A stretch of 64,000 bases of DNA, taken from positions 5,315-69,314 of the forward strand of contig CAYYGL010000001.1 of assembly GCA_964471235.1 (NCBI GenBank), given 5' to 3'. Under the pieces are notes generated by a model. The model worked only from the letters and a program-made list of their open reading frames with translations, searched no databases and was not told the DNA's origin. How positions within the stretch are numbered: the first letter of the stretch is position 1; every line of letters begins with the position of its first letter. Below, in pieces: positions 10,635 through 53,906 of this stretch. Origin of the DNA: an uncultured Calditrichaceae bacterium. GTDB lineage: Bacteria > Calditrichota > Calditrichia > RBG-13-44-9 > J075. The translations under genes were made by a program, and so were the position numbers.

Positions 10635-11924
10635 TCAGAAACTAAACTTCACCTCCAGGAACGCCCGGGAGTAAGGTTCGTTCCTGCCAAAGGGGCTGCC
10701 TGAGGGACCGTGAAAGAGGGTCGCCCCGGCAAAAATGTTCAGCCCGTCTGCCAGACCGTAGGTGAGAATCGGCAGCAGGAAAAAATCACCATCCCTCAAA
10801 TTGACCACCCCAATTACCTGCACGTCACTGAAATCGGCAAATTGGTAATGGATTCTTCCGGAAAGCGATTGGGCATACTTCTCCGGCGGATTGGGAGATG
10901 GATTTCCCACCTGGTGCAAGCGGCGAATTTCCGCGGCCCGGTCATATTTCAGGCGGATGGTCTGGATAAACTGGGCGTTCAGGGAGATGTCATCACTGAG
11001 ATTGTAATCACTCCCCAGAACATACTGAATATGGGGATTTTCCACAAACACATCCGTTCCCCGGCGGTCGTGGGTCAAAAAATAGGCGCCCTCACCCTTT
11101 AAAGAGAACTTCCCGGCAGTGGTCACGAAATCCATCCCGAATACCTGCAAGGGAAAGTAATGAGGCTCAAACACTATCCGTACCGGGAGAAAGTTTTTAT
11201 CAAATTCCGGGGTGACCAGCACGGAGGGATTTTTATCAAAGCCGTGGTAGTAACTGAAGGAATAATCGATTTGAAATATTTGGGATGCCAGCCGGATGGC
11301 ATATTCGGAGCTCTCCAGCTCATTCCGGGGGAGAGTCGGATCCAGTAGGATTACCGGCAGATGCCCCATGGAATCGGGCGCGGTCAGGGGGATTTTATGC
11401 GGGGTAAAGCGGGGAATCCAGACGCCCTCCACTGTCCAATTATCCCCGAAGTAATAATCCGCTTTCAGGGCAGAAACGGCGATACGGTAATCCTCTATTT
11501 CGGCAGCAATGTTCTGGAAATCCCAGGGATTCAGATTATCGGTGGGATTAATCCAATCGGCGGTTCCCCAGAAGATAAACTGTTTGCCAATCCGCAGGTC
11601 CAGGTTTTTTAAAAACAGGTCAATGTAGGTTTCCACCGGGTAAATCTCCGTGGTGGCAGCCCGGGATTCATTTAACCTGCCGGTGGAACGGGTTTCTTCC
11701 ACATTGAAATCAAAGGACGCGAAGAAAGCCGCCTTGCTGCCCAGATTGCGATCCAGCGTAAGCTGCAAGCGAGATCCCAGGCGGTCGAAAGGGAAGGGGC
11801 TGTTTAAATTGGGATGGGCAAAAAATTTTAAATAGCCGGAAAGGTCGACCTGTTGTGCGGCTGTCGTTAATGAAACGCTCGGGAGAAGAAATATAAGATA
11901 TAGGAGAATATGTCGAAATTTCAT
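10635..11924 (-). CDS. Putative outer-membrane beta-barrel protein (DUF1302-like partner of RND exporter)
   Basis: N-terminal signal peptide, alternating beta-strand-like pattern, and a C-terminal aromatic (…EVKFSF) typical of OMP barrels. It sits in an operon with the LolA-like and RND genes. Confidence 0.5.
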   Translation of the reverse strand: MKFRHILLYLIFLLPSVSLTTAAQQVDLSGYLKFFAHPNLNSPFPFDRLGSRLQLTLDRNLGSKAAFFASFDFNVEETRSTGRLNESRAATTEIYPVETYIDLFLKNLDLRIGKQFIFWGTADWINPTDNLNPWDFQNIAAEIEDYRIAVSALKADYYFGDNWTVEGVWIPRFTPHKIPLTAPDSMGHLPVILLDPTLPRNELESSEYAIRLASQIFQIDYSFSYYHGFDKNPSVLVTPEFDKNFLPVRIVFEPHYFPLQVFGMDFVTTAGKFSLKGEGAYFLTHDRRGTDVFVENPHIQYVLGSDYNLSDDISLNAQFIQTIRLKYDRAAEIRRLHQVGNPSPNPPEKYAQSLSGRIHYQFADFSDVQVIGVVNLRDGDFFLLPILTYGLADGLNIFAGATLFHGPSGSPFGRNEPYSRAFLEVKFSF

Positions 11925-12021
11925 ATTGACCTTACCCGGTTAGTTGTAAGTTTCACAAATCATTTGTCTTACCTGTTTTAATTGACCCGCAACGCACAGC
12001 AAAAAAGAATACCTCCTCTCT

Positions 12022-12810
12022 TTATCTTGCCCGTTGTAAAAAACGCCGGGTAAAGAAATCCGCCGGAATCCCCCGGTTCACTTCCACATTGTAAAATTTC
12101 ATCTCACTGGAGTGCCCGGTCTGTATATCCTTCATCACCATATCGGTCTGGAACCACACCCCGGCAATATTTTCCACCATCGGCACGTCCAGCGTTTTCC
12201 ATTCCCGCAACCCCCGGTCGAAGTAAAGAGATTTCACCGTCACCAGCCGTTCCTGGTCGATCCAGCGGATAATTTTTCCATACCCGGTATCGCGGGCGAT
12301 TTGTTTATCTGCCGGGAGGGATTCGATCCGGTAACACTGCCGCCCGTTCACTGCTTCATCGGGAAGACGTTTGTACGTCCAATCATTCAATTTGGGCTTG
12401 CCGATGTCGTAATAGGTAAAATCGGAGGACATAAAATTGCCACCTTTGCCGCTGGAGGCAATTCGCTTTACCCGCCGCAGCGCCGGTAAGTATAAATATC
12501 GTTCATCATCGCTGTTTTCATGTTCCTTCAACAGAAAAGCGGTGCCTTTCACATCTGCCGGGGCAGTAAAACGCATCAGCATGTCGCTTTCGTTGGGGGT
12601 GCGCTTGCGGCTGTACATTACCATTTTCCGGACCCGACGTTCCCCCCGGGCATTGGTCAAAATCAACTCCACTTCACCCTGCATATCCTGCCAGGTGGTC
12701 TTGTTAAGGGAGCGTTTCATAATCTCGTATCCACTTAATTCCTGGGCAGAAACCGAGTAGACGACCAGAAACAGGATCATGAGAATGCCTCCCCAAAAAA
12801 ATTTTTTCAT
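12022..12810 (-). CDS. LolA-like outer-membrane lipoprotein-sorting family protein
   Basis: Signal peptide, 262 aa. Its start overlaps the RND gene stop (ATGA), and this family is typically paired with COG1033 exporters. Confidence 0.6.
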   Translation of the reverse strand: MKKFFWGGILMILFLVVYSVSAQELSGYEIMKRSLNKTTWQDMQGEVELILTNARGERRVRKMVMYSRKRTPNESDMLMRFTAPADVKGTAFLLKEHENSDDERYLYLPALRRVKRIASSGKGGNFMSSDFTYYDIGKPKLNDWTYKRLPDEAVNGRQCYRIESLPADKQIARDTGYGKIIRWIDQERLVTVKSLYFDRGLREWKTLDVPMVENIAGVWFQTDMVMKDIQTGHSSEMKFYNVEVNRGIPADFFTRRFLQRAR

Positions 12811-15170
12811 TTCTTCACCTCCGGTTGTGAGCGAAAAACACTGGGTTTCATCAACAATAAAATGACCGGCAAGATGGAAATTGCCCCGAAGCAGGAGGTT
12901 AACATGGCGATGGCAATTAACAAACCCATGTGCTGAACCCCGCCGAATGTGGAAAAGGTAAGCACCGCAAACCCCAGTCCCACGGTCAAGGCGTTGATAA
13001 CAATCGGAATTCCGGCATCTTTTAAAGCGCTGCGAACCCCCTGGGCTTCATCCTGAGTTTGCAGTTCCAGCCGGTAGCGATAAATGAAATGCACAGCGTA
13101 ATCCACTCCCACCCCAATGGCGATGGAAGAGGTGAGCATGGTGACGATATTCAGATTGATATGCGCCCAGCCCATGAAACCGAAATTAAATACCATGGCA
13201 AAGAAGAGCGGAATTACGTTCAATAAGCCGATACCTACCGAACGAAACAGAATTGAAGTTACCGCAGTAACCAGCAGCAGTGATACCAGGATGCTGTAAA
13301 ATTGCCCGGAGACCACCAGATCGTTAATGGCTAAAAATAGCTCAGAAGTGCCGGTGAGCGCCATTTTGAGATTCGGGAAATGCTCTCGGATATATTGCCG
13401 GGTTTTCCGGTCAATCTCCCGCAATACATTGCTGGATTCGGTATCAATAAAGGCGTTGATGCGGGCAATCCGGTAGTCGTAATTCACCAGGTTGGCTAAG
13501 TCTTCCGGTTTACCGGACATCTCATACAACTGCAAATATTGGGAGATTAACTCCCTTCCGGGCACCCGGAATGCCACCTCCTTTTCCACCCATTTACCGT
13601 TTACTTCCACCCAATCGATGCCCACCTCCTGAACGGTATCCGCCGGAATGCGGTCATACGCCGGATCATCGGCATGGAGTACTTTGTTCATTCGCCGGAT
13701 GTAATCCGTTAAAGAGAGGGTGGCACCCACATGGGGTAGCGATTTCAGGTAAGTCTCCAGAGAATCCATTCCCTGCAACATTGCCGGTTCTTTTATCTGG
13801 TTGGCGCTGTCACCTTCCACCATCACCGTTAAAAAGGTGGTGCCGGCAAAATGACGGTTAATGTGTTCGTAATCCACCCGCGCCGGGTGATGCCTGGGAA
13901 AATTGCTGACGGTGTTATTTTCCAGGTGTATCCGGGGGAAGCCCAGCACCGAGAAAAGGATGATCAAGATGATAAATGCCAGAACATACCACCGCCGGTT
14001 CACCACAAAGTCTCCATAAGCTGTTGCCAGACGGTAGAAGCGTCCTTCCATCCGCCGGGTGATTGCCCGCCGGGGAATTTTTAAAAGGCTTAATGTTGCC
14101 GGGATGACACTGAGGGAGAAAATCATGGCAATCATCACCCCCAGGGCGGTAAACCAGCCCAACTGCCCGATGGAACCGATATTGGAGGTATTCAGCGCCA
14201 GGAACCCGAAGGCGGTGGTTACAGAGGTAATGATGACGGGACCGTTTAATTCCCGCATCACCTCAAGCACTAATTCCGGGGCTTTCTCAAATCCCGGCGC
14301 ACGGTGGTAATAATGATTCAGGATGTGAATGCCGTCTGCCACCGCGATAGATGCCAGAAGGATGGGCAGCATGTTGGTGGAATGACTGATGGGAACCCCC
14401 AGGAGCGCCATGATGCCAATCGTCCAGACAACGCTGGCAAGCACCACCGAAAGGGGCAGCAACACCCCCCGGAAACTGCGGAAGCTGAGCCACAGAATTA
14501 AAATAATCAATAAAATGACCAACGAAAAGAGCACCCGGATGTCTCGTGCCATCCCACGCCCCAGGTAAAACGTCAGGATTGGTTTTCCGGTGAGGTAAAT
14601 GCGGGCATCCGTCTTCAGACTATCGATATATCCTTTGATCTCCCCGGCGGCATCTTCCGGTTTGACAGTGTTCTTTAAAAATACCATGATGCCCGCCATG
14701 CGGTGATCTTTGGAGATGATGTTCTCGATGGGGAGATCACTGTGATACAGAATCTGACGGTATTGCGCAATTTCCCGGGGTGTTTCCGGTGGAGCGGAAA
14801 GGATTTCCTTCACCTCCATGCCCTCTTCCGTTCCCCGGATCACCTTGATATTAGTAGGGCTCATCACTGAGTAGACATCAGGCAGATCCTGGAGGTGTGT
14901 GGTGATATCAAAAATCAGTTTCAGAATTTTGGGAGTGAAGATGGAATCGCTTTCCACGGCTATCAATACAAAATCCCGGCTGGGAAAGATCTCGTTCATC
15001 CGATCATAAATGAGTTTGGCAGGTATTTTTTGGGGAAGGGAAGAGGTGATATCCGGATCTACATGTATCAACCGGATGCTATATCCGAAAAAGAGAGTTA
15101 ATAAGAAAATCAGAATGATGGTGGAACGGGGAAAACGCACCACCAATCGAGTAAATGAAAGCATTGGCAT
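12807..15170 (-). CDS. RND-superfamily exporter (MMPL / COG1033 family)
   Basis: 787 aa, with two 6-TM bundles each preceded by a large periplasmic loop. The GxxxD-containing TM segments are typical of MMPL-type RND proteins. Confidence 0.8.
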   Translation of the reverse strand: MPMLSFTRLVVRFPRSTIILIFLLTLFFGYSIRLIHVDPDITSSLPQKIPAKLIYDRMNEIFPSRDFVLIAVESDSIFTPKILKLIFDITTHLQDLPDVYSVMSPTNIKVIRGTEEGMEVKEILSAPPETPREIAQYRQILYHSDLPIENIISKDHRMAGIMVFLKNTVKPEDAAGEIKGYIDSLKTDARIYLTGKPILTFYLGRGMARDIRVLFSLVILLIILILWLSFRSFRGVLLPLSVVLASVVWTIGIMALLGVPISHSTNMLPILLASIAVADGIHILNHYYHRAPGFEKAPELVLEVMRELNGPVIITSVTTAFGFLALNTSNIGSIGQLGWFTALGVMIAMIFSLSVIPATLSLLKIPRRAITRRMEGRFYRLATAYGDFVVNRRWYVLAFIILIILFSVLGFPRIHLENNTVSNFPRHHPARVDYEHINRHFAGTTFLTVMVEGDSANQIKEPAMLQGMDSLETYLKSLPHVGATLSLTDYIRRMNKVLHADDPAYDRIPADTVQEVGIDWVEVNGKWVEKEVAFRVPGRELISQYLQLYEMSGKPEDLANLVNYDYRIARINAFIDTESSNVLREIDRKTRQYIREHFPNLKMALTGTSELFLAINDLVVSGQFYSILVSLLLVTAVTSILFRSVGIGLLNVIPLFFAMVFNFGFMGWAHINLNIVTMLTSSIAIGVGVDYAVHFIYRYRLELQTQDEAQGVRSALKDAGIPIVINALTVGLGFAVLTFSTFGGVQHMGLLIAIAMLTSCFGAISILPVILLLMKPSVFRSQPEVKK

Positions 15171-15380
15171 CTCTCCCTTTCACATCAACCGTATACGAGG
15201 TTCTGTAAGCCTGTTAACTCATAGAACCCATAACCCATCATCAAAATGTACAGCCATTTTTCAATTCACCTCATCCCCTGGTGAAAAGGAGTAAAACATC
15301 TCTCTAAATGTAATCATTTTCCCGGAAAAATATAACTGCAATAAATTTTTCTGAGATGGAATTTTGTAACGACTCAGGTG

Positions 15381-15473
15381 GTTATACCGCAACGAACGCA
15401 ACGTTGGCAACGAACAGATGTTTATCTCTTTCATGATGCGGTCCGTCGCGTATCCGCTGCGTTCATTGCGGTA
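15381..15473. repeat. MITE/REP-like intergenic repeat, copy A (inverted relative to copy B)
   Basis: The reverse complement aligns to 24125-24210. Shared segments include TACCGCAATGA.AGCAGCGGA.ACGCGACGG, AAACATCTGTTCGTTGC.AACGTTGCG and GTATAAC. Terminal inverted repeats read TACCGCAAYGAACGCARCG. Confidence 0.6.
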
Positions 15474-15732
15474 CAGAAAAAGTTTTGATGACAAAAAACA
15501 GATTTCTAGAGCAACTCTTTCTTTTCTACCTCCTAAATAGCTACTACCTGAGTAGTTGCGTAATTTTAAACAATTTACAGAACTGCGAAAAACGGGCGGT
15601 AAATTTTGTTTGTGTCCGGGCAAGATGCTTCCAATAGATGGCATCGTCAAAAGATTACCGGGGGGCATGCCGGGTATCAACTGCAAACAGCCGGATTTTG
15701 AAAATCCGGAGTCAATTGAACATCACGAAAGT

Positions 15733-19262: not shown

Positions 19263-19396
19263 AGCTGGATGAGACGTAATGTACATAAGCGGATGGAATG
19301 ACGGAAGTTTGAGCAGCAGCATATCTACAGAGGTTCATTCTAAGTATCCGAACAAATAAAAAGGAATTTTACACCCCAATTCCAATTTTGTAAAGT

Positions 19397-19431
19397 GGGG
19401 TTGACAAAAATGTTCATATTTTGTCAACCCC
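19397..19431. repeat. Perfect 13-bp inverted repeat GGGGTTGACAAAA-9nt-TTTTGTCAACCCC between convergent genes (candidate bidirectional terminator or operator)
   Basis: The sequence was read directly. It is nested within a longer imperfect palindrome (ACACCCCA...TGGGGT). Confidence 0.5.
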
Positions 19432-19645
19432 ACCTTACACTTTTTCAGTAGAGAACGCTTTTCGGAATTTACATCAGTCGGTTGCGTTTCAATTTCATGT
19501 AAAATTGTAAGCCCAATCTGTCATGTCGGTTTGTGCTGCTATCAGGCAGGCGATACTGTCACAGAGTGGCTCCGTTGGAGGCTTCTCATTCCGGAGATTC
19601 TTCCAATTTACACAGATTTTCTGATTTTGAGGAAAAGGGAGAAAA

Positions 19646-23814: not shown

Positions 23815-24124
23815 ACTGCCTTTCCATGAGTGTTATCACTTCATTTAAAAATGGACCGGGAGGATGTCACCATCTCTCGCCATCAATTTACCTCCCTCAA
23901 TTAAAGCGCTATTTGTGTGTGCCTATCGGCACCAGCACATGTGCTGCCTTAGTGAACATTGATGCACGCCAAATATAGAGGATTAATGGGAAAACAGCAA
24001 CCGCAATTTGAATGAAGATTTTGAGAATCCGACCCCATTTCGGAAAAACCTGTGGTAACTATTCAGAAGGCAGACCATAAAGAGTTCCTGTATAAAGATG
24101 CATCTGTAATCAACAGTGTCTTTT

Positions 24125-24210
24125 TACCGCAATGATAGCAGCGGAGACGCGACGGCGGCCGCAACGGGAAAGAGACAAACATCTGTTCGTTGCGAACGTT
24201 GCGGTATAAC
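24125..24210. repeat. MITE/REP-like intergenic repeat, copy B
   Basis: See copy A. It lies in the uvrA–methyltransferase intergenic region. Confidence 0.6.
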
Positions 24211-24342
24211 ACCCTGAATCCCTACAACTTGTGAAAAGGGGAGAAGGGTTCCGGTTGGTGCCCATTTTGGGTTCCGGATTAATTTTCTTTTCGATTTTTG
24301 ATAGCATCTGCTTAACTTGCTCGCAAGGCATGATGTTATCGA

Positions 24343-24987: not shown

Positions 24988-25010
24988 TATTCCAAATACT
25001 CTCCCCCTGT

Positions 25011-25130
25011 CCCACTGTCTCCCTGTCTTACTGTTCCACTGCCTTACTGCCCCACTGTCTTACTGTCTCCCTGTCGCACTGCCTTACTGCCTCACTGTCT
25101 TACTGTCCCACCGCCTCACTATCCCTCTCC
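25011..25130. repeat. Imperfect 40-bp tandem repeat x3 within a ~200-bp pyrimidine-rich, G-poor tract upstream of hpnC-like gene
   Basis: Units CCCACTGTCTCCCTGTCTTACTGTTCCACTGCCTTACTGC, CCCACTGTCTTACTGTCTCCCTGTCGCACTGCCTTACTGC and CTCACTGTCTTACTGTCCCACCGCCTCACTATCCCTCTCC. There are about 17 G in 200 nt. Confidence 0.6.
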
Positions 25131-26991: not shown

Positions 26992-28326
26992 ATGGCATCC
27001 GGTCGGGTGTTAATAGTCGGGGGAGGCGTTGCCGGCATCAGTGCCGCGGTTGCCGCCATCCGGAAAGGGCTGCAGCCGGTGTTGGTGGAAAAGAATCGTA
27101 CCCTGGGCGGCAGAGCCCGTTCCCTGTACGCCCGGGATATCCGCCGCACCATTGACAATGGGCAGCATGCCCTCTCCTACAATTATCAGCACACCCGCTG
27201 GTTATTGGCCACTCTGAATTCTCTTGAACGGATCCATTTTCAAAAGCGGCTGGAAATCCGTTTTTACCTGTCGCATCACCGTCGAATCCACTTTCGGGTC
27301 TGGAATTTACCGGTACCGTTTCATCTGCTCCTTCCGCTGTTTCTTCTTCTCCCCCTGACCCCGGCAGACCGAAAATTTTTGGTGCGCTGGGGGTGGATGA
27401 ACCGAAATCTGTCTGAATATCAACTGAAATCCATGACGGCAAGGGAATGGCTATACCAGGCAGGAGATGCCCCGGTGTTGGAACAAGTATTCTGGACGCC
27501 CCTGACGCTGGCAGCGCTGAACACGCCAATCGAAAACGCCAGCGCCCTTCTGCTGTACCGTGCGTTGCGGCAGGGATTTTTAAGCGGAGCTGCCCGGAGC
27601 GGTTTGGGGTTGCCGACAGATATGCTTGGTGAAATTTTTGCCAACCCTGCCGCACAGTTTATCCGCTCCCGGGGCGGATAGGTATTAACCGGCACTGCGA
27701 TAAAAAAAATAAATTCCGCCAACGGCAGAGTGGTTAGCGCCACAACCGGGCAGGGGAAAGTGCTAAACGCCAGGCACTTCGTTCTGGCAACCTCCCCCTC
27801 CGCCCTGGTAAAAATTCTTCACCGGAGTGAGACAGGGGAGGAAAAATGGTGGAAACCGTTTTCTAAATTCCAATATTCCCCGATTATTACCATAAATTTT
27901 TGGACCCGGGAGCCGCTTCCCGCCGGACCCCCCATTGCCCTGGTAAATTCGCCATTGCAGTGGATATTTCCAATACCCAACCACGATAAACCCGGAGAAG
28001 GATATGGCTATACCGGGGTTATCAGCGCCGCATTCCGTGAAGTAGATTGGGGAAGAGAAACACTATTGGAGATGATAGACCGGGAGTTTGTTCGGTTTTT
28101 TAAACGAAGCCTGGTAACGGATTTCCACCTGATCGAGAGCAAAATTATCAAAGAAAAAACCGCCACCATCCTGCAAACACCGGATTCGCTACGATTGCGC
28201 CCCGGCGGAGTCACGCCTTATCCCAATCTGGTATTGGCAGGAGATTGGCTGGATACCGGTCTGCCGGCAACTATCGAAAGTGCGGTGCAAAGCGGCAGAG
28301 AGGCAATTGATAAATTAACCGCATGA
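26992..28326 (+). pseudogene. hpnE: HpnE-like FAD-dependent amine-oxidase family oxidoreductase (hydroxysqualene dehydroxylase-like) interrupted by a single in-frame TAG at 27679-27681
   Basis: N-terminal dinucleotide fold VLIVGGGVAGISAA...VEKNRTLGGRARS. The reading frame continues unchanged through the TAG (…FIRSRGG*VLTGTAIKKINSANGRVVSATTGQ…) to 28326. Combined length is ~445 aa, as expected for HpnE. Confidence 0.7.
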
Positions 28327-35709: not shown

Positions 35710-36382
35710 TTATGTATCTCCGTAAGTCAAGAGGAGGAGGTAATGGTTCAATTCGTCTTACCAAAATTTCATTCAAATTATAATTTTCTTTTTTTAAGAC
35801 TTTATATATTTCTTTTTTTGACGGTTCAATAGCTATTCGAGATTCTCCTCGGTAGGCTACCCATTTACCGGGTGCGGTTTCCATAAGCAATGGAAGTTCT
35901 TGTTGAAATTTTTCCCATCCGATTGATTGGAATTCAGATAGTAACAACGTATCGAACCGTTTTGTGATACGTTCTATCGTAAAATCGATGAGTCGATCTA
36001 TCTCCCGGGTTTGAAAAGGGGGAGATTCTTTAACTTGTTTTAATAAGTTCAAATCTTCAACTTCACCACATTCACACATCCACCACAGCGAAGCAATGAA
36101 ATCTTCTTCTGTTGCCGGAGAAACTAAATCTAACCGGCGAGTGAGCTTCTCATAAGTGAAGGGAATAATATGCCATTCTTTTTCAATTTTTTGCCATTCG
36201 TTATTGCTGCAATGTTTGGCGCTGTGAATTATGCCTGAAAGGCAACTTCCGATTAATGTGGCGACCTGGCGTTCGAAGTCCAATTCTTTTTCCGGAAGGA
36301 TATATTTTTCGCTTACTTGGATTGCCTGATGAAGATTGCTAAAGAGTTCCTGAACTCCCGGGGGGTTATGAAGTGAGATCAT
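35687..36382 (-). CDS. Hypothetical protein (231 aa) overlapping the retropepsin-like gene start by 23 nt
   Basis: The ORF shows operon-style overlaps on both sides. It has a Cys-containing segment WWMCECGEVED and no recognised family. Confidence 0.45.
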   Translation of the reverse strand: MISLHNPPGVQELFSNLHQAIQVSEKYILPEKELDFERQVATLIGSCLSGIIHSAKHCSNNEWQKIEKEWHIIPFTYEKLTRRLDLVSPATEEDFIASLWWMCECGEVEDLNLLKQVKESPPFQTREIDRLIDFTIERITKRFDTLLLSEFQSIGWEKFQQELPLLMETAPGKWVAYRGESRIAIEPSKKEIYKVLKKENYNLNEILVRRIEPLPPPLDLRRYINVVTQEG

Positions 36383-36384
36383 TT

Positions 36385-36804
36385 TTATCTTTTTCCCTTC
36401 TCATTTTTGTTTAATATGTTGTTAATCTCTTCAACCAACTCAAACTCTAATAAGTTTATTTTTCTGAAGAACCAACAATTTTTTTCTGTATAAAATTTCT
36501 CAGCGATGTTCGGATCAGCTACATGGGTAAAAATAATCACCGGAAGAGTTTTATTAACCTCCCTGATTTTTTCATAAAAACGAATTCCGGTACGAAATCC
36601 CATCTGTGTGTCATCCAGGTTAAAGCTCTTTCCTGGCGGCATCATAATATCCAAAATTATTAACTCAATTCTTTTAGAATGTTCTGTAAGAAAATAAAGA
36701 GCATCATCCACATCCGTGCATAATTTAACTGAATAACCGGACTCTTCCAATTCCATAATATAGTTCTCCATTCTTCTTTTTTCGTCATCAACGAAAAGTA
36801 TCAT
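36385..36804 (-). CDS. Stand-alone response-regulator receiver (REC) protein
   Basis: ILFVDDE and LIILDIMMP (phospho-acceptor Asp) and a conserved T and K further on. 139 aa, no output domain. Its start overlaps the kinase stop by 17 nt. Confidence 0.75.
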   Translation of the reverse strand: MILFVDDEKRRMENYIMELEESGYSVKLCTDVDDALYFLTEHSKRIELIILDIMMPPGKSFNLDDTQMGFRTGIRFYEKIREVNKTLPVIIFTHVADPNIAEKFYTEKNCWFFRKINLLEFELVEEINNILNKNEKGKR

Positions 36805-39800
36805 GGGGGAACTCCTTTAATCTTTTGGGAATTAAAACATGAAATTCGGTTGGCTTATACCGGTTTTTTAAAATTAAATCCCCCCCCAACTCCTGCATTG
36901 TTTTTTTAGCGATTGGTAATCCCAATCCAGTGCCTGCCACATCTTTATTTATCGCTTCCGGCGTGCGATAACCTTCTTCAAAAATTTTTTCTTCATAACT
37001 CTTACGAATCCCAATACCCCAATCTTTAAACTTGATAATATAATACTCCCGGTCTTCATCTAAATCAATTCGGATCGCAAATTTTTCAGGGTCATCTTCT
37101 GCGTATTTTATCGCATTTGTCAATAGGTTGTGAACAACAGAATTCAATTTGGAACGATTTACGTAAATTTTTATTTTATGGGCATCTTTTACGTTAAAAT
37201 AAATTTTTTTGTAATCAAGCCCCTTACCCACTACCAACGGATTGAACTGCTTAATTGACTTGATGATAATATCACGGTAAACAATGGTGCGTTCCTTTTT
37301 AGAACTCGGCGATTCACCGCCCAGTAAATGTTGTATCTCCTCTATTTTCAATTTTAATATTTCACAATCTGTCAGTATATCATCAAGCTTGGCTTTATAA
37401 AGGTGAGATGGGAGGTTCGGCAACCTTCGTTTTAAGAAAGATGTGTTGCTTCTGATGCCACCAAGTGCAGAATTAAATTCATGTTGAATTTTTTCCAATA
37501 ATAGTTGTCTGTGTTGCTCCAGTGCTTTTACACTATATTCCACTAATCCTTTTAAGATTTGAACATCTCGTTCATAAATATATTTACGATAACCTTTTTG
37601 ATAGCCTGCTTCTACCGTTCCCATGACCTGGTTCTTTTTTGCGGTTGCAATCATCGGAATATAGACTCGTAACAAGCGATCATGATGGAACCGCTTATAA
37701 ATATGAGTATCATATCTTTTGTCATCACTCCCCGGTGCCTCAATTTGTCTATTCCTGACCACATCTGCCTGGATATCGTTACTGTTCAAGGAGTGAATTG
37801 CTAATTGTTTGAAGATTTCTTTTTCTTCATCCGGGATCCCAACCACATATTCAGTTTGAATCCTATTTAGCTCTGGAATGACAAACGAAATGTTTACATA
37901 TTCATATCCCAACGTTTCGGTAATGGCTTTTGAAACAATTTGAACAATTTCAGTTCGGTCACTGGTGCCAACAATCTCCTTCTCAAATTGTGCCATCTGG
38001 GTTAATTTCTGGTCGAAATCTAATTTCTCGAACATAATAGCAGCATGACGGGCTAAAGACCACAAAATCACCTCATCGGATTTGGAAAATGCATTGAGGG
38101 CAGGGCTTTCAATATTCAACACACCAATCGGTTTTGACCCCCATCGAATTTCTTTTCCCACCCGAACTTCAGCATTGGAAATCACTATCGGAACTGCTAA
38201 TTCGGAACGGGTATCATCCCAACATTTAACGTAAATATCCTTCCACTCACTGCTATGGACATTTCCCACTCGGATAGGTCGTTCGGCGGACAAAGCCTTC
38301 CCGGTAATTCCCCGACCTAATTTAAGAGAATGTTTTCGGGGAGGTGAGCCACTGTATTCAACCAGATGTAATAAGCCGGTTTTAAAATCCAGCCGACTCA
38401 CCCAACCTCTTTCCGAGTCTACCAATTTTAATCCTTCATCCAAAACCAACCTCAACAGTTCGTTGACATCTCGTGTTTCTGCCATTTGTTTAATAACTTT
38501 ATTAAGCTTTTGAAACCGGCGTCTGCTGTTTAAATTTTCAATGGCAACCGAGGTCTGTAAAGCCAGGGTTTTGAAAATGTTTTTATGCCATTTGGTAAAA
38601 TGACGTTCATGTTGGAACGAATATACTTCAATAATGCCAATTACTTTTTTTCCATAGGATAATGGCATTGCCAGCATGGATTTCCAACCTAAATTTTTAA
38701 CTAATCTGTAATAAGGATGAGTCTCTATGACACTGGCATCTTCCAGATAGTAAGGTTTGTTTTTCAGTAAAAAGCGGGTTAAACATTTACTATCATTTCG
38801 TAGTACCAAATCCTTAAGGGGGGCTCCCTGCCCTTCCGGGATACTGTATTCTGAAACTACGAAACCATCTTTATTCTTATCATGTAGCCACACAATACAG
38901 ATTGGTTCGCTCATCAAATCTTGGGTTAAATTCACCACCTTTTTTAATAATACATCCAATGATTCTAAATGAGTCATCAATTCCGGTAGCTGGAGCAATA
39001 TATCGTTTAGCATGGCTTGCTCAATCGCCAGAGCTACTTTCTGAAGCACTTTTAGTAGGGATGGAAAATCATCCGAGTTAAAAGCATCCGGTTTACTTTT
39101 TCCTACACTCACCGTAGCAATAACAGCATCTCCTGACTTGATAGGAGCACAATAAATTGAATCACCAATATTAAACCCGCCATATTTGGGGTCAGTGGAA
39201 GCATTGCGACAGTAATAAGGTTTTTTAGTTTTTGCAACATATCCTGCAATACCCTTTTCTATAGGAAACGAATGTTGAATTTGAGTGCCAATCCGGGGAT
39301 ATATGGCTTTAAGTTCCAGTCGATTGGTGGCTTTATTCCAAATTCTCAAACAACACGAATCGGCGTTGGTTATTTTTGCACAAGTTTCGACAATTCGGCT
39401 CAGCTTTTGCTGAAATTCCCCGGCATCTACATTTTCATAAGAGATTTCAGCGGAAGTATCTAACAATTGAGATTGGTATCGTAAAATTTGACTTTCGCGC
39501 ATTAATTCGGCTTTCTGGATTGAGAATGCAGCGTGATTGGCAAAAATACCGAATAATTCCTTTTCCCAAACTTTAAAATGGCGTTTGGTTTTGGTATATA
39601 AATTAAGCATGCCAATTAACTTCTCTTCTCCAAACCACATTGGGGCACTCAAAAGCGATATCCAACCTCTCTGTTTTGCTTCGCGAGGATGACTATACAT
39701 AGAGTTCGGTTTGGTAACGTCTTCAAGATACCCAACTTTTTTACCGGTTAAATGTTGTTGAATCCCTGGAAAATGAATATCCAATTCCAGTTGTTTATAT

Positions 39801-40540
39801 TCTTCGTCCACTTCTCCAGTGGTTGCAACAATCTTCAATTTGGTTAAGCTGGCATCCAACATCCAAATGATACAGATTGGAACGGAAAGTAATTCGGAGG
39901 CTTTTTCAGAAACTATTTGTAAAAATTCATGAGGTGTTAAATTCTGCAATTCACGGGATAATGAATACAATATGCTTAGAGTTCTTTCCAACATTCGTAG
40001 ATAATCAAACCTTTCAATAGTCAACACAGCATGTCTAGCAAAAGATTCGAGAAGATGAATTTCATCCGGGGGAAATTTCTGTAGTGTGTTGGAAAAATGA
40101 TTAAAATAGCCGATGAGATGATTGTCACTTTTTAAAGGGTATGATAAAACTGATTGTAAATCATACCTTACGGCTATTTTGGGATTAGCTACACCTTGAC
40201 CAGATTTTTGTAGATTATACTTCTCTATAATTTCTCCGGAAGCGAATAAATTATAATCAAGAGAAGTCGATTTACCTGATGAACTGTTTGTTCTGGTATT
40301 CCTGAACGTGTAATATGCATATTTTTTAAAATGATTATCAAAACCGGCACAGGCGGCAAGTTTCAAAGTCTTGGTTTCTTGATCAATAAGAATGAGTGTG
40401 CAGGCGTGGGAATGAAGGGCTTTTTTACCCAATTCTGTTAGTCGATTCAGTGCCGACGCTTTATCTTTATATAGAATCGGTACTTTACTTAACTCATTTA
40501 TGAGATCTACAAAATCGATTTGTTGAGTAGAGGTCCCCAT
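36788..40540 (-). CDS. Sensor histidine kinase with multiple tandem GAF domains (about five) and C-terminal HisKA + HATPase_c
   Basis: 1250 aa with repeated GAF-like modules. It carries an H-box (…QHEFNSALGGI…), N-box NLLTNAIKYA, G1 DWGIGI and G2 GTGLGLPI. There is no TM segment, so it is cytoplasmic. Confidence 0.85.
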   Translation of the reverse strand: MGTSTQQIDFVDLINELSKVPILYKDKASALNRLTELGKKALHSHACTLILIDQETKTLKLAACAGFDNHFKKYAYYTFRNTRTNSSSGKSTSLDYNLFASGEIIEKYNLQKSGQGVANPKIAVRYDLQSVLSYPLKSDNHLIGYFNHFSNTLQKFPPDEIHLLESFARHAVLTIERFDYLRMLERTLSILYSLSRELQNLTPHEFLQIVSEKASELLSVPICIIWMLDASLTKLKIVATTGEVDEEYKQLELDIHFPGIQQHLTGKKVGYLEDVTKPNSMYSHPREAKQRGWISLLSAPMWFGEEKLIGMLNLYTKTKRHFKVWEKELFGIFANHAAFSIQKAELMRESQILRYQSQLLDTSAEISYENVDAGEFQQKLSRIVETCAKITNADSCCLRIWNKATNRLELKAIYPRIGTQIQHSFPIEKGIAGYVAKTKKPYYCRNASTDPKYGGFNIGDSIYCAPIKSGDAVIATVSVGKSKPDAFNSDDFPSLLKVLQKVALAIEQAMLNDILLQLPELMTHLESLDVLLKKVVNLTQDLMSEPICIVWLHDKNKDGFVVSEYSIPEGQGAPLKDLVLRNDSKCLTRFLLKNKPYYLEDASVIETHPYYRLVKNLGWKSMLAMPLSYGKKVIGIIEVYSFQHERHFTKWHKNIFKTLALQTSVAIENLNSRRRFQKLNKVIKQMAETRDVNELLRLVLDEGLKLVDSERGWVSRLDFKTGLLHLVEYSGSPPRKHSLKLGRGITGKALSAERPIRVGNVHSSEWKDIYVKCWDDTRSELAVPIVISNAEVRVGKEIRWGSKPIGVLNIESPALNAFSKSDEVILWSLARHAAIMFEKLDFDQKLTQMAQFEKEIVGTSDRTEIVQIVSKAITETLGYEYVNISFVIPELNRIQTEYVVGIPDEEKEIFKQLAIHSLNSNDIQADVVRNRQIEAPGSDDKRYDTHIYKRFHHDRLLRVYIPMIATAKKNQVMGTVEAGYQKGYRKYIYERDVQILKGLVEYSVKALEQHRQLLLEKIQHEFNSALGGIRSNTSFLKRRLPNLPSHLYKAKLDDILTDCEILKLKIEEIQHLLGGESPSSKKERTIVYRDIIIKSIKQFNPLVVGKGLDYKKIYFNVKDAHKIKIYVNRSKLNSVVHNLLTNAIKYAEDDPEKFAIRIDLDEDREYYIIKFKDWGIGIRKSYEEKIFEEGYRTPEAINKDVAGTGLGLPIAKKTMQELGGDLILKNRYKPTEFHVLIPKRLKEFPHDTFR

Positions 40541-40617
40541 GCTAGAATCCTCCTTCGGACTGGGGAATAGCTCAAATAAAAAAGTAGTAAAACTGCATTT
40601 TCCCCATATCCGACCTA

Positions 40618-41397
40618 TCAGTTACCAGGGAAAATTAAAGGTAGTTCAACATTAAGTTGGTTTGTAGTTGTTGAAAACGTACCAACTTTTATCTTAAGCG
40701 AATCAAATTCAAAAAAGACACTTAATCCTTCAGAATCGGTTCCCGTTAAATTCTGATTTGGTATTAATAGATGAAGGGTTAACTTACCCTTTTCGTCAAT
40801 GGAAAATCGTACAATTTGAAAGTGGATGTCACAGTGTGTAATTTCCGTCACGACACGTACTTTGATATGATGGGGAATAAAACATCTATCATCTAAAATT
40901 TTTTCTTTCTGCAAATGATAAATCCTGGCACTTGCTACACGCATTACCGGAAAAGGGGTTGGTTCTACATCAGAGATTGGTTCTACATCAGAGAATAGAG
41001 AGCTTGTAGTAGATTCGCATACTAACCATTTATAAACTTCATGTAATATTTCCCTGGCAGATGTGTCATTTTGTTTTGCGCGGTTTATCAAATCGATTAG
41101 ACTACTTTTTCTTGCTTCGTTTAGTTTTTCAGCCATTTCAATTTGTTCAACTGTTTTTTCCGCAAGTGATTCAATTTCCCTTTGCGAGAAAGTCGGTTCT
41201 TTTTCAGATTTAAATGGCTCAAATAATAACTCGCCTGCAACTTCCGTTTGAATCGCCTTTGCAATCTGTTTTCGAAGTTTCGGATACCTACCAAAATAAT
41301 AATCAATGTTTTTAGATCCACCAGAACGTTTTGCCCTGATGTATTCATCGACGATTTTAGTAATCTTATCAGGTTTATAGACACTATTCCGGCTCAT
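40618..41397 (-). CDS. Hypothetical protein overlapping the sigma-factor stop (candidate anti-sigma / partner protein)
   Basis: The 14-nt overlap with the sigma-like gene is typical of sigma/anti-sigma pairs. It contains a perfect 18-bp tandem duplication (40959-40994, SDVEP repeat) and no recognised domain. Confidence 0.4.
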   Translation of the reverse strand: MSRNSVYKPDKITKIVDEYIRAKRSGGSKNIDYYFGRYPKLRKQIAKAIQTEVAGELLFEPFKSEKEPTFSQREIESLAEKTVEQIEMAEKLNEARKSSLIDLINRAKQNDTSAREILHEVYKWLVCESTTSSLFSDVEPISDVEPTPFPVMRVASARIYHLQKEKILDDRCFIPHHIKVRVVTEITHCDIHFQIVRFSIDEKGKLTLHLLIPNQNLTGTDSEGLSVFFEFDSLKIKVGTFSTTTNQLNVELPLIFPGN

Positions 41398-42388
41398 GTT
41401 TGTCCTGCTTATTATTTCCGATAATAACTTCCTTCTCTAAAAAATTATAAATTTTACGACGAACTAGATGAGCATTTTTCGTATCCCCGGCTATTTGGGC
41501 ATACGTCTTCAAATGTAGGAAATGTTGGGTTGCTTTAGCGGAGGCAGAATTCGTTGAGACCGAGGTAAAAGAAATTACAATTTTTCTATTTGAATATGCA
41601 GAAAACCATTTTTTTTCAAATTCCAGCGCGTTTTTTAATGCTTGGTGGTTCCCGTCTATTACTGGGAATAAGTCTTTCAAATCATTCATCGACAGAATTT
41701 TAGCAGTTCGTAAGGATTGGCAATATTCATCAAGAATATCGGTAATTATAATATCTTGTAATTTTTTTTGAGCTCTCTGTGTCCTTTTGCGAATCGTCGC
41801 TGGGTTGATATCTTGAAACACATAAGCGATTTCTTCATAGGTAAATTCTTCACAAAATCGAAGCAATAACAAACTCCTGTCCTGATGAGGAAGACGTTTC
41901 AGAAAATTATTTAATTGGATTTTTTTTCTATCTTGTAAATCATTATGTACAGTATATGCAAGGGGTTGATTTTCTAACTCCCCCTCAACCATTTCTTTTT
42001 CAATATCCCGATCACGAAAGTTGGGATTATCTAAAGATATTACGATCAGATGTGGTTTTCTTTTTCGGGCGGTAAGGATTTGTTTATTACAAATCCAATA
42101 CAACCATTTCTTAAAATTAGTACCCAACTCAGTTTCGTCTATATCTTCAGGTATAGTAAAAACCTCACGTGCTTTCCATGCCTGAAGAAAAGTCGCCTGT
42201 AATATTTTACTGGTATCAAACTTATCAAATCCTGATCTGGTAATAAAATTCTCCAATTCTGCACCGTATTTTTTAAACAGATAAGCAAAGCACTGTTTGT
42301 CACCTTCCTTAAAGCCCCTAATTATCTCAATTAAGGACATAGGCGTTCTCCAATGTTGTATTTTGATCCACTTGCCTGAACCCCACAT
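41384..42388 (-). CDS. ECF-type sigma-70 family factor with ~130-aa C-terminal extension
   Basis: Region-2-like FLQAWKAREVF and region-4 HTH LLLLRFCEEFTYEEIAYVFQDINPATIRKRTQRAQKKL. The start is possibly at an internal Met. Confidence 0.6.
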   Translation of the reverse strand: MWGSGKWIKIQHWRTPMSLIEIIRGFKEGDKQCFAYLFKKYGAELENFITRSGFDKFDTSKILQATFLQAWKAREVFTIPEDIDETELGTNFKKWLYWICNKQILTARKRKPHLIVISLDNPNFRDRDIEKEMVEGELENQPLAYTVHNDLQDRKKIQLNNFLKRLPHQDRSLLLLRFCEEFTYEEIAYVFQDINPATIRKRTQRAQKKLQDIIITDILDEYCQSLRTAKILSMNDLKDLFPVIDGNHQALKNALEFEKKWFSAYSNRKIVISFTSVSTNSASAKATQHFLHLKTYAQIAGDTKNAHLVRRKIYNFLEKEVIIGNNKQDKHEPE

Positions 42389-42710
42389 CCCTATACCGGG
42401 AAGGCTGTAAATACGTTATTCCTTCCGTGGAGAGTTATGTTTAAAACTCGGTCTGGAAATTACTCATGAAGTATAATGTTATTGTTTTTTTAAAATACAC
42501 TCTTCCCAAAGAAAGAAAAAGAAAAAATACTTTTTACAACTACTTTATAACTATCAACTACTTTTTATTATGTGTGACATATTTTGTAGTATTATTTTTT
42601 TATTTTCCCTTATTCATCTAATCTTAATCCATTTCTGTGGGAATCAGTCCCATCCGTGAAAAATAAGACTATAATTAATATAGAGTATGTAAAATGGGGA
42701 AGGAGCGTAT

Positions 42711-42971
42711 ATGTTCTTAGAAGGTTCATTCAGAAGTTTTTTGGCAGGAAATATTTTTGGGTTGCTTTGGGGCTTCTCCGGTGTTATCGGGAGACGACTT
42801 TTGCAGATTTTTTTTGCTGTCTGTGTAATTGTGGTTATTGTTTTTATTGTTTTTGAGGGAATGGATGATGTCGTAAGTCTTTTCGAGTGGATGTTTGACC
42901 AATTACTAAATTATGTATACTTTGCCATGGGCGTAGTGAATGGTATGTTGATCTCCTATCGGCGCACATGA
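42711..42971 (+). CDS. Possible small hydrophobic protein (86 aa) in the AT-rich leader region, opposite strand
   Basis: Two predicted TM helices. It lies inside a ~700-bp AT-rich non-coding stretch and could be spurious. Confidence 0.2.
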   Translation: MFLEGSFRSFLAGNIFGLLWGFSGVIGRRLLQIFFAVCVIVVIVFIVFEGMDDVVSLFEWMFDQLLNYVYFAMGVVNGMLISYRRT

Positions 42972-43094
42972 AAGTTTGTTAGTTCTAGGTGTTATACTGG
43001 AGTGTGATGGAAGTGTTTTTGCTATCGTAACCTCTTTTGAAATACAATTTTTTCCATTGAGAAATTCCAGAGTTCCAGTCAACAGTATCGCTGT

Positions 43095-52751: not shown

Positions 52752-53156
52752 CTATAGCTTATCATACAGCTTCTTAGGAAAAAGCGGAAGTAATATTTTG
52801 CGAAGTTTTTTTAAGGTTTTTAATGCCAGACGAGATTCCTCAATTGAAGTATCATCGCCGGGATAGCGAAATTGAACCGAATAGGGATTGAGTATTTCCA
52901 ACCATTCACGATAAAATACAAGTGAAGGAAAATTTTTCTCCAACAAAGTGAGCAGCACCAACAAATCATGTGTTTTGGGGAATGAAATTTCTTGCTGAAT
53001 AAGTAAAGCTTTCAGGTATTTTTCTGCTGACTGTTGACAATGAAAACAAACCAGATCGGGTAATGGCTTTTTTCTTCGACGCGAGAGATCAATAGCTCCC
53101 TGGTAATCGTTTTCCGCTTTTTTTAACCAGGCGATTATTTCATCCGGATCTCGCAT
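52752..53156 (-). CDS. HEPN-domain protein (toxin partner of the adjacent nucleotidyltransferase)
   Basis: FHCQQSAEKYLKALL helix typical of HEPN. Its start overlaps the upstream MNT gene by 17 nt. Confidence 0.65.
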   Translation of the reverse strand: MRDPDEIIAWLKKAENDYQGAIDLSRRRKKPLPDLVCFHCQQSAEKYLKALLIQQEISFPKTHDLLVLLTLLEKNFPSLVFYREWLEILNPYSVQFRYPGDDTSIEESRLALKTLKKLRKILLPLFPKKLYDKL

Positions 53157-53499
53157 ATACTACCATCCCTTCCGATAAAACGGCATGCATAAAGGGGTCT
53201 ACCCGTTTTTCTGCTGCCCTCACCTCCCCAGGTGTTTTTACAATGATGTCAAGAGGGATTTTCCGTGGATATAATCGGCGGGAAATCATTCTTTGGCGCT
53301 CTGCCGGTGCTAAGGTAGTCTCCATAATTACCAACAGGTCCAGGTCGCTATCTTTGCTCTGTTTTCGGGTAGCATACGAACCAAATAAAATAATTTTTTC
53401 CGGTTCAAAATCATTGATAATCGTCTGAATAACCTGTATAATAAAAGTTGGGAGTCGCCGGTGAATGGAATTCGTCAATTTTATAGTATTTTCAGCCAT
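53140..53499 (-). CDS. Minimal nucleotidyltransferase (MNT) domain protein
   Basis: LFGSYATRKQSKDSDLDLLVI is the GS…D.D polymerase-beta-like NTase motif. 119 aa. Confidence 0.7.
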   Translation of the reverse strand: MAENTIKLTNSIHRRLPTFIIQVIQTIINDFEPEKIILFGSYATRKQSKDSDLDLLVIMETTLAPAERQRMISRRLYPRKIPLDIIVKTPGEVRAAEKRVDPFMHAVLSEGMVVYARSG

Positions 53500-53637
53500 T
53501 GGTTGTACCTGATGAGATGTTTTGTAACCCCACTAAAAAAACATAACAAAATGAAATGGGATTTTCAAGTCATTCTTGATATGCGGAGAAATGCGAATGT
53601 CAATCTATTGACTTTCCTTTGATTCCGAAATGTGCCG

Positions 53638-53735
53638 TATTACCGTGACATTCCCCACCACGGCAGGGTCGCGGTCGCAAAGATAGAGCCTCTTCAAAAA
53701 CGTTGCGCACGTTGCGTTTGCTTTGCGTTCGTTAC
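53638..53735. repeat. Possible degenerate third copy of the MITE/REP-like repeat
   Basis: It shares TACCG…, GCGGTCGCAAAGATAGAGCC (cf. GCGGCCGCAACGGGAAAGAGAC) and CGTTGCGCACGTTGCG (cf. CGTTGCGAACGTTGCG), and is intergenic. Confidence 0.3.
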
Positions 53736-53906
53736 AGTTAAGCAAACCGCTGTAAGCCATTGCTCGGGTATCTAAACAACCAGAGTCGTTACAGTTATCC
53801 CAACCGATGACAATACCGGAAGGTCCAAACAATCAACCCGGTTTATCAATGGGAGTTTCAGTAAGCAGCGGTATGGGATTTCAAAACAAGTTTTGACGCT
53901 CCAATC

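Follow-up and report, generated by a model that had tools for sequence, protein, structure and literature searches.

Bacterial MITEs (miniature inverted-repeat transposable elements) include the Correia/NEMIS elements of Neisseria, ERIC/IRU of the enterobacteria, and RUP of Streptococcus pneumoniae. Among complete insertion sequences, GTAA ends in combination with a direct repeat of 8-9 bp are the signature of IS66 and the ISBst12 group in the ISfinder family table. A further bacterial MITE is MITEAba12 of Acinetobacter (PMC6382973). ISDge4 of Deinococcus geothermalis, a member of the ISBst12 group of the IS66 family with a single open reading frame (ORF), has the ends GTGACTACTCAGCA / GTAACTGCTCAGCA and an 8-bp direct repeat, and its transposition has been observed (PMC12898284). 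Other IS66 ends start with GTAAGCG or GTAACCG (PMC12888890). Here, we describe a repeat family in a stretch of 64,000 nucleotides, referred to as the window, from the genome of an uncultured Calditrichaceae bacterium of the phylum Calditrichota (assembly GCA_964471235.1, contig CAYYGL010000001.1, positions 5,315 to 69,314 of the forward strand). An earlier note, made from the sequence alone, had pointed to small intergenic repeats at positions 15381-15473, 24125-24210, and 53638-53735 of the window and considered them a miniature non-autonomous element or a repetitive extragenic palindromic (REP) type of structured repeat. We show that these repeats are parts of a longer element, which we identify with high confidence as a MITE and whose ends are probably of the ISBst12/IS66 type.

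The repeat noticed first is not the whole element but the inner right-hand module of a non-coding element of about 195 nt. The family consensus of 195 nt (GTAACTACTCAGGTAGTAGCTATTTAGGACGTAGATAAGAAAGAGTTCCTGTAGAAATCTGTTTTTGTCATCAAAACTTTTTCTTTACCGCAATGATCGCAGCGGATACGCGACGGCAGCCGCAACGTGAAAGAGATAAACATCTGTTCGTTGCGAACGTTGCGTTCGTTGCGGTATAACAACCTGAGTAGTTAC) has termini that are 14-nt perfect inverted repeats of each other, GTAACTACTCAGGT on the left and ACCTGAGTAGTTAC on the right. Between them lie about 70 nt of A/T-rich left body, an imperfect hairpin of 73-92 nt, and the 5-nt spacer TAACA, in this order. Across 22 aligned copies, conservation runs from the left to the right terminal repeat, with unrelated sequence outside, and it stops at these bases in at least 17 of them. 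The copies are 171-198 nt long, and the ORFs overlapping them are all spurious. The ~90-nt repeat delimited by the earlier note is real but was drawn too narrowly, similarity running about 85 nt and 19 nt further out. In the same way, the inverted repeats TACCGCAA.../...TTGCGGTA, which had been taken for the termini, exist and form a hairpin, but they are internal, and the true ends, GTAACTACTCAGGT, are situated 85 and 19 nt outward.

The right arm of the hairpin is a tandem array of the 9-nt unit NNCGTTGCG, which occurs once in 3 copies, twice in 5, and three times in 13. The layout of the element is thus asymmetric, the long hairpin being present in the right half only and its arm consisting of an array of variable length (1-3 units). 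At the left end (consensus positions 1-28; window positions 15532-15559 on the minus strand and 24055-24068), two tandem 13-nt quasi-repeats, GTAACTACTCAGG and GTAGCTATTTAGG, can be recognized. One of them is missing from the second window copy, which looks like a slippage deletion.

Two copies and one relic of the element are present in the window, and all three sites are intergenic, as the earlier note had it (Table 1). The hairpin module of copy 1 (15385-15473, reverse-complemented) and that of copy 2 (24125-24206) are about 85% identical, which bears out the claim of two related copies in opposite orientation, and both contain the inverted repeat TACCGCAAYG...GCARCG / CGYTGC...CRTTGCGGTA. 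Matches to the pattern TACCGCAAYGNNNGCARCG ... TTGCGGTA in the window are confined to these two copies, with 0.00 expected from shuffled sequences. An additional 9-nt unit had been reported for one of them; indeed, copy 1 has one TTCGTTGCG unit more than copy 2. Copy 1 shares 80-89% identity with the copies detected in metagenomes. Copy 2 is older and more diverged, and it lacks one 13-nt left-end quasi-repeat and one 9-nt unit relative to copy 1. Its left end is GTAACTATTCAG at 24055, whereas its right end, ACCCTGAATCCCTAC, is decayed, and the target-site duplications listed for copy 2 assume that the left end is placed at GTAACTATTCAG (24055). Outside the element, the window copies stand in unrelated sequence.

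Table 1. Positions of the two MITE copies, their parts, and the decayed third copy in the 64-kb window
Feature	Position	Strand	Details
MITE copy 1, full length, 194 nt	15366..15559	-	nhmmer family profile positions 1-195, E 2e-63
Left terminal inverted repeat, copy 1	15546..15559	-	GCAACTACTCAGGT, 1 mismatch to the consensus GTAACTACTCAGGT
Right terminal inverted repeat, copy 1	15366..15379	-	ACCTGAGTCGTTAC on the element strand
Target-site duplication, copy 1, left	15560..15567	.	AAAATTAC on the element strand; 7 of 8 positions equal to its partner
Target-site duplication, copy 1, right	15358..15365	.	AAAATTCC on the element strand
Internal hairpin, copy 1 (feature of the earlier note)	15385..15473	-	right arm of three 9-nt units, TTCGTTGCC AACGTTGCG TTCGTTGCG
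MITE copy 2, 171 nt	24055..24225	+	nhmmer E 1e-37; profile match spans 24052-24224
Target-site duplication, copy 2, left	24047..24054	.	AACCTGTG, read from the sequence; 7 of 8 positions equal to its partner
Target-site duplication, copy 2, right	24226..24233	.	AACTTGTG, read from the sequence
Internal hairpin, copy 2	24125..24206	+	two 9-nt units
Decayed relic, third copy	53578..53792	+	scores 69 in local alignment (null maximum, 61)

The third site is an old, badly decayed insertion. The diverged copy that had been suspected near 53638-53735 carries CGTTGCGNNCGTTGCG, the exact double heptad, which occurs three times in the 64 kb, once at each of the reported sites; about 0.4 occurrences of this heptad pair would be expected in the window even with 2 mismatches allowed. 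Local alignment of the relic to consensus positions 34-195 scores 69, compared with 41.4 (standard deviation, 6.5; maximum, 61) for 380 random windows, so that the alignment lies above the null maximum, although nhmmer alone gives it only an E value of 0.21. The alignment stops exactly at the right end, ACCAGAGTCGTTAC (53779-53792), which differs from the right terminal repeat at 2 positions. CGTTGCG units are discernible at 53701-53716, about 33 nt are inserted ahead of the right end, and both the left arm and the left end have disappeared; neither a left end nor a target-site duplication can be recognized at 53578-53792.

The family is not restricted to the window. When metagenome contigs were scanned with a pattern in which about 23 bases were specified, 23 loci were obtained, 4 of them chance matches. 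The remaining 19, each on a different contig and all from the JGI metagenome Ga0256841, hold 20 true copies, one contig containing two. With a full-element profile, nhmmer recovered 18 full or nearly full metagenome copies and two that are truncated at the 5' end (L133 and L138). Identity between copies is 85-95%, with a mean of 89%, and the element is the sole sequence shared by the MITE-bearing metagenome contigs and the window. All copies are intergenic and occur in both orientations, 10 being co-oriented with the next gene and 6 convergent to it. The neighboring genes have unrelated functions and encode an aminotransferase, a Rieske protein, an ABC permease, a short-chain dehydrogenase, an acyl-ACP thioesterase, a glycosyltransferase, a PorV-like protein, a histidine kinase, CheB, and an M4 peptidase. 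A scan of genome contigs with the loose pattern TACCGN{50,75}CGTTGCGNNCGTTGCG yielded at least 118 chance matches in unrelated taxa, and BLAST of the copies against these loci gave no match. At least two related populations of Calditrichota carry the family.

Evidence that these copies arrived by transposition comes from their flanks. Target-site duplications, which the earlier note had recommended looking for, were found and are 8 bp long. Among 17 full-length copies, the two flanking 8-mers agree at all eight positions in 4 cases, at seven in 8, and at six in 3, i.e., at six or more positions in 15 of 17. When flank partners were shuffled, a mean of 2.46 of 8 positions matched, and only 1.5% of pairs reached six matches. 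Identities of 85-95% between copies fit an old burst and accord with the many duplications that match at 7 of 8 positions.

An empty orthologous site was found for the copy upstream of the M4 peptidase gene (L135), an insertion that is also contained in the ENA and Logan assemblies (L269 and L270). The filled site reads ...AAACG GGATAGTC (MITE) GGATTGTC GAGAGTTTGTAATA... in L269, whereas the orthologous locus L271 (GCA_025491055.1; 86% amino acid identity) reads ...AGCAG GGATTATA CGGAATTTGTAATG..., with a single target and conserved flanks. Similarly, copy 1 is absent from L001, the closest relative of the window locus that encodes an MMPL protein downstream of copy 1 (94% amino acid identity in the MMPL protein and 86% nucleotide identity). 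There, homology resumes at window position 15358, and the left-side intergenic DNA is too diverged for the exact empty site to be defined.

In summary of its properties, the element falls into the size range of MITEs (about 50-500 bp) and is free of a transposase gene, has terminal repeats at its exact ends, is flanked by a duplication of fixed length, and occurs in dispersed copies that are present or absent at orthologous sites. The view of a miniature non-autonomous mobile family, put forward in the earlier note, is thus supported by 20 more copies on 19 unrelated contigs, by the target-site duplications, and by the empty orthologous site. Like other bacterial MITEs, the Calditrichota element is small, non-coding, and intergenic, has terminal inverted repeats, target-site duplications, and dispersed copies, varies in presence between relatives, and has a strong potential to fold back on itself. 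Judged from general knowledge of the named MITE families rather than from alignment, it differs from them in its unrelated sequence, its host phylum, its IS66-type ends, and its asymmetric layout. It is an ordinary kind of genomic parasite; the family is new, and the kind is already known.

The ends of the element provide a link to a known group of insertion sequences. A scan of viral contigs (IMG/VR) with the 14-nt end returned mostly chance matches and three loci that hold the end twice in inverted orientation. One of these (L198:2463-4295) is an insertion sequence of 1,833 bp with the ends GTAACTACTCAGGTAGG... and a perfect 8-bp duplication, TCTTTTTG. Its left end shares 16 identical nt with the MITE, and its right end 14. 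Its single ORF of 535 amino acids matches Pfam DDE_Tnp_IS66 (PF03050; 8.7e-36), zf-IS66, and, above the cut-off, NCBIfam transpos_IS66 (NF033517; 2.3e-79). The second locus (L215:2946-3623) holds a 678-bp deletion derivative with the ends GTAACTACTCAGGT and a remnant of the N terminus of an IS66-type transposase, and the third (L173:5746-5901) holds a 156-bp MITE, again with the ends GTAACTACTCAGGT and with its own 9-bp (or 8-bp) duplication, CGTAAGTG(C). These two elements share the 14-nt ends with the Calditrichota MITE but are unrelated to it in their interior, and thus they derive independently from same-group insertion sequences in other hosts. All three contigs are catalogued as viral, and the element of L198 is a complete ISBst12-type insertion sequence of the IS66 family.

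A comparable relationship connects the MITE to described members of the group. Its ends begin with GTAACTACTCAG... like those of ISBst12-group IS66 elements, agree at 11 of 14 positions with each end of ISDge4, and are accompanied by a duplication of the same length, 8 bp. Hence, an IS66 derivative is indicated by the 5'-GTAA ends, the 8-bp duplication, and the ends shared with an element encoding an IS66-family DDE transposase. On the basis of the identity to the ends of the L198 element, the likeness to ISDge4, and the duplication length, we assign the MITE, probably correctly, to the ISBst12/IS66 type. Unlike the L198 insertion sequence, it is only ~195 nt long and non-coding, and similarity between the two ceases after the first 14-16 nt. 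No paper describing an IS66-derived MITE was found in the searchable literature, a search to which subscription journals and ISfinder did not belong.

Several observations weigh against these assignments and have to be set beside the evidence above. Copies in the source genome were counted within the 64-kb window only. The metagenome pattern demanded the base of the hairpin, so that copies with a diverged hairpin were missed and conservation at that position is partly forced. Two full-length copies, those of L126 and L127, have no target-site duplication. For L126, the left flank GAGTTACC (L126:4819-4826) is the same as the sequence that flanks the near-identical L141 copy on its right (L141:147-154), and the duplication is probably absent because the contig is an assembly chimera joined through the repeat or the product of recombination between copies. 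With respect to the ends, the link to IS66 consists of 14-16 nt and the duplication length, and not of any subterminal similarity to a parental element. A tblastn search with the L198 protein detected no IS66-family transposase in the window or in about 100 kb of fetched MITE-bearing Calditrichota contigs, and the named relatives of this protein are found in Bacteroidales, on short contigs, not in Calditrichota. Among viral contigs, the only locus related to the L198 transposase was the query itself, and MITE-specific subterminal 22-mers had 0 matches there.

In the contigs L127 and L136, a segment of about 60 nt adjoins the left end of the MITE (L127:7933-7993 and L136:5531-5591, approximate positions). 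It is common to both and starts in an end-like manner with GTAACT(G/A)TTCAGTTG. This segment could represent another miniature element related to the first, or else a left end that has been duplicated.

Considering the element as a MITE, we propose that a DDE transposase supplied in trans would cut and integrate it, and that staggered target cuts placed 8 bp apart would give rise to the 8-bp direct repeats. This trans-acting enzyme would most likely be a member of the IS66 family, of the single-ORF ISBst12 group. As far as can be judged from the ends, it is most likely an IS66-type enzyme of this Calditrichota lineage that mobilizes the MITE.

The most conspicuous part of the element is its internal hairpin. 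When the element strand of copy 1 is folded as RNA, it reaches -48.1 kcal/mol (z -7.1), compared with a z of -1.3 for the opposite strand, while copy 2 folds weakly (z -2.5). The asymmetry between the strands is due to two positions that pair as G-U on one strand and is inherited by all copies; it is not evidence of selection because it was inherited from the founder copy. The mean column identity is 0.96 in the right-arm units and 0.87 in the left arm, and the right-arm units are the best-conserved part of the element that was not forced by the search. Conservation of the hairpin base proves nothing because the search pattern demanded it. No compensatory change was found in the hairpin across 19 copies, and variation in the inner left arm has no counterpart in the right arm. 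The hairpin with its variable 9-nt array is best read as a passenger structure, altered by replication slippage, rather than as a selected function. The data gave no support to a function such as protein binding, RNA stability, or promoter activity. It is quite unlikely that the hairpin with its CGTTGCG array is instead functional cargo, for example an array to which a host or transposase protein binds, or a structure, in RNA or DNA, through which expression of the downstream gene is changed. Were this the case, the copies upstream of the operons for squalene synthesis (HpnCDE-like) and for an MMPL/LolA-like exporter may have been co-opted for membrane-lipid genes, and the number of units (1-3) would serve as a tuning or phase-variation device. 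An outward sigma-70-like promoter in the right arm of copy 1 (TTGCCA-18-TATAAC), noticed by eye, was discarded as a candidate; a promoter scan did not call it, and it is missing from copy 2.

The positions of the two window copies could suggest a shared cis-regulatory element, in which the CGTTGCG / CGCAAYG heptads act as the operator or the upstream activating array of a lipid regulon. Copy 1 lies 195 nt ahead of an operon encoding MMPL/RND, LolA_like, and DUF1302 proteins, and copy 2 lies 117 nt ahead of a methyltransferase gene, both in the direction of the genes that follow. The operon downstream of copy 2 comprises this methyltransferase gene, two squalene/phytoene synthase genes (HpnC/D-like), and an amine oxidase gene (HpnE-like). 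Moreover, chance would be very unlikely to produce the regular 9-bp array of the heptads, and the high conservation of the right-arm units relative to the left arm (0.96 versus 0.87) would suit a binding site. However, the element is missing upstream of the orthologous MMPL operon in L001, even though the promoter-proximal 190 nt are conserved there, and more distant relatives have a TetR gene at this place and no heptad pair. The other copies adjoin genes as disparate as those for the M4 peptidase, aminotransferase, Rieske protein, ABC permease, CheB, histidine kinase, and glycosyltransferase, and 6 out of 16 point toward the 3' end of the gene beside them. That the copies arrived by transposition is shown by their terminal repeats, their target duplications, and the empty site. 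We thus regard a lipid-regulon operator as very unlikely and a regulatory origin of the repeat as largely refuted, secondary co-option at single sites being conceivable. Most likely, the two good window copies stand upstream of lipid operons for no other reason than that intergenic DNA tolerates insertions.

The MMPL protein has its closest named relatives in metagenome-assembled genomes of Calditrichaeota; an exact look-up of window proteins gave no record. In five loci with about 70% identity to window positions 10635-15170 (L002-L006), a gene for a TetR-family regulator lies directly upstream of the MMPL-LolA_like-DUF1302 operon; this gene is absent from the window and from L001.

A structured RNA, either a small RNA (sRNA) gene or a 5' leader or riboswitch with the hairpin as its functional unit, also appears highly improbable. 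The stronger fold of the copy 1 element strand (z -7.1 versus -1.3), which results from consistent G-U positions, speaks for such an RNA, but copy 2 folds weakly (z -2.5), the inner stem varies one-sidedly with no compensatory change in 19 copies, and the orientation with respect to genes is mixed. Rfam matched only a tRNA in the window and nothing over the copies, neither at the gathering threshold nor at E values up to 10. The sole promoter-like site near copy 1 is located between the element and the gene, in a stretch conserved with L001.

REPs are palindromes of 20-40 nt that are usually clustered and have neither terminal inverted repeats nor target duplications. The alternative offered in the earlier note, a palindromic repeat of this kind or of the bacterial interspersed mosaic element (BIME) type, spread by a REP-associated tyrosine transposase (RAYT; IS200/IS605-like Y1 transposase), would accommodate a strong imperfect palindrome that is intergenic and present in many copies, features common to REP/BIME repeats and MITEs. 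Nevertheless, it is hardly credible here, where the unit is about 195 nt and exceeds the size of a REP, has 14-nt terminal inverted repeats, and is flanked by 8-bp duplications, and where an IS66-family DDE insertion sequence has the same ends. The enzyme implied would be of the HUH/Y1 type for REP/BIME repeats, as opposed to DDE for the MITE. Among the annotated neighbors of the copies, no Y1/RAYT gene came to notice, although the search for one was not systematic. A local segmental duplication or an assembly artefact limited to the window, which the three copies visible within 38 kb might have suggested (the earlier note had named a local segmental duplication in its refutation), is itself refuted by the unrelated flanks of the window copies, by the dispersal of 20 copies over 19 independent contigs, and by the recurrence of the same insertion in separate JGI, ENA, and Logan assemblies.

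Some further features of the window were recorded. In the operon downstream of copy 2, the 250-nt gap between the end of the methyltransferase gene (24987) and the start of the first squalene/phytoene synthase gene (25241) is occupied by a tandem array of the 8-nt unit CTGTCTCA (25007-25120; about 14 copies, 69% matches, and a higher-order period of 40 nt). The HpnE-like flavin amine oxidase of the same operon appears to be split into two ORFs (26992-27681 and 27730-28326) that match positions 1-179 and 235-438 of Pfam Amino_oxidase, which could be due to a frameshift, to pseudogene formation, or to an error in sequencing within an otherwise intact HpnC/HpnD/HpnE-like squalene operon. Between the two copies, an intergenic 21-nt inverted repeat, TGTAAAGTGGGGTTGACAAAA / TTTTGTCAACCCCACCTTACA (19389-19439; 95% complementary, 9-nt loop), probably serves as a terminator or binding site. 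A likely toxin-antitoxin-type pair, made up of a HEPN-domain gene and a nucleotidyltransferase gene (52752-53499), lies directly downstream of the decayed third copy. The region of about 36000-44000 has a G+C content of 0.38, compared with 0.47-0.50 elsewhere, and long ORFs, such as 36788-40540 (1,250 amino acids); it may be a horizontally acquired island, and tblastn detected no IS66-type transposase in it.

For the annotation of this genome, the identification of the element as a MITE means that two stretches of about 195 nt, together with the relic, are a mobile-element repeat and not a regulatory motif shared by lipid operons or an sRNA. Repeats of this kind break metagenome assemblies, and one likely chimera was seen (L126/L141). 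At the same time, the copies are useful as markers of strain and species history. In Calditrichota, a phylum that has received little study, the family provides a clean example of a MITE whose ends are probably of the ISBst12/IS66 type, and its copies would imply that an IS66-type transposase is, or recently was, active in this lineage.

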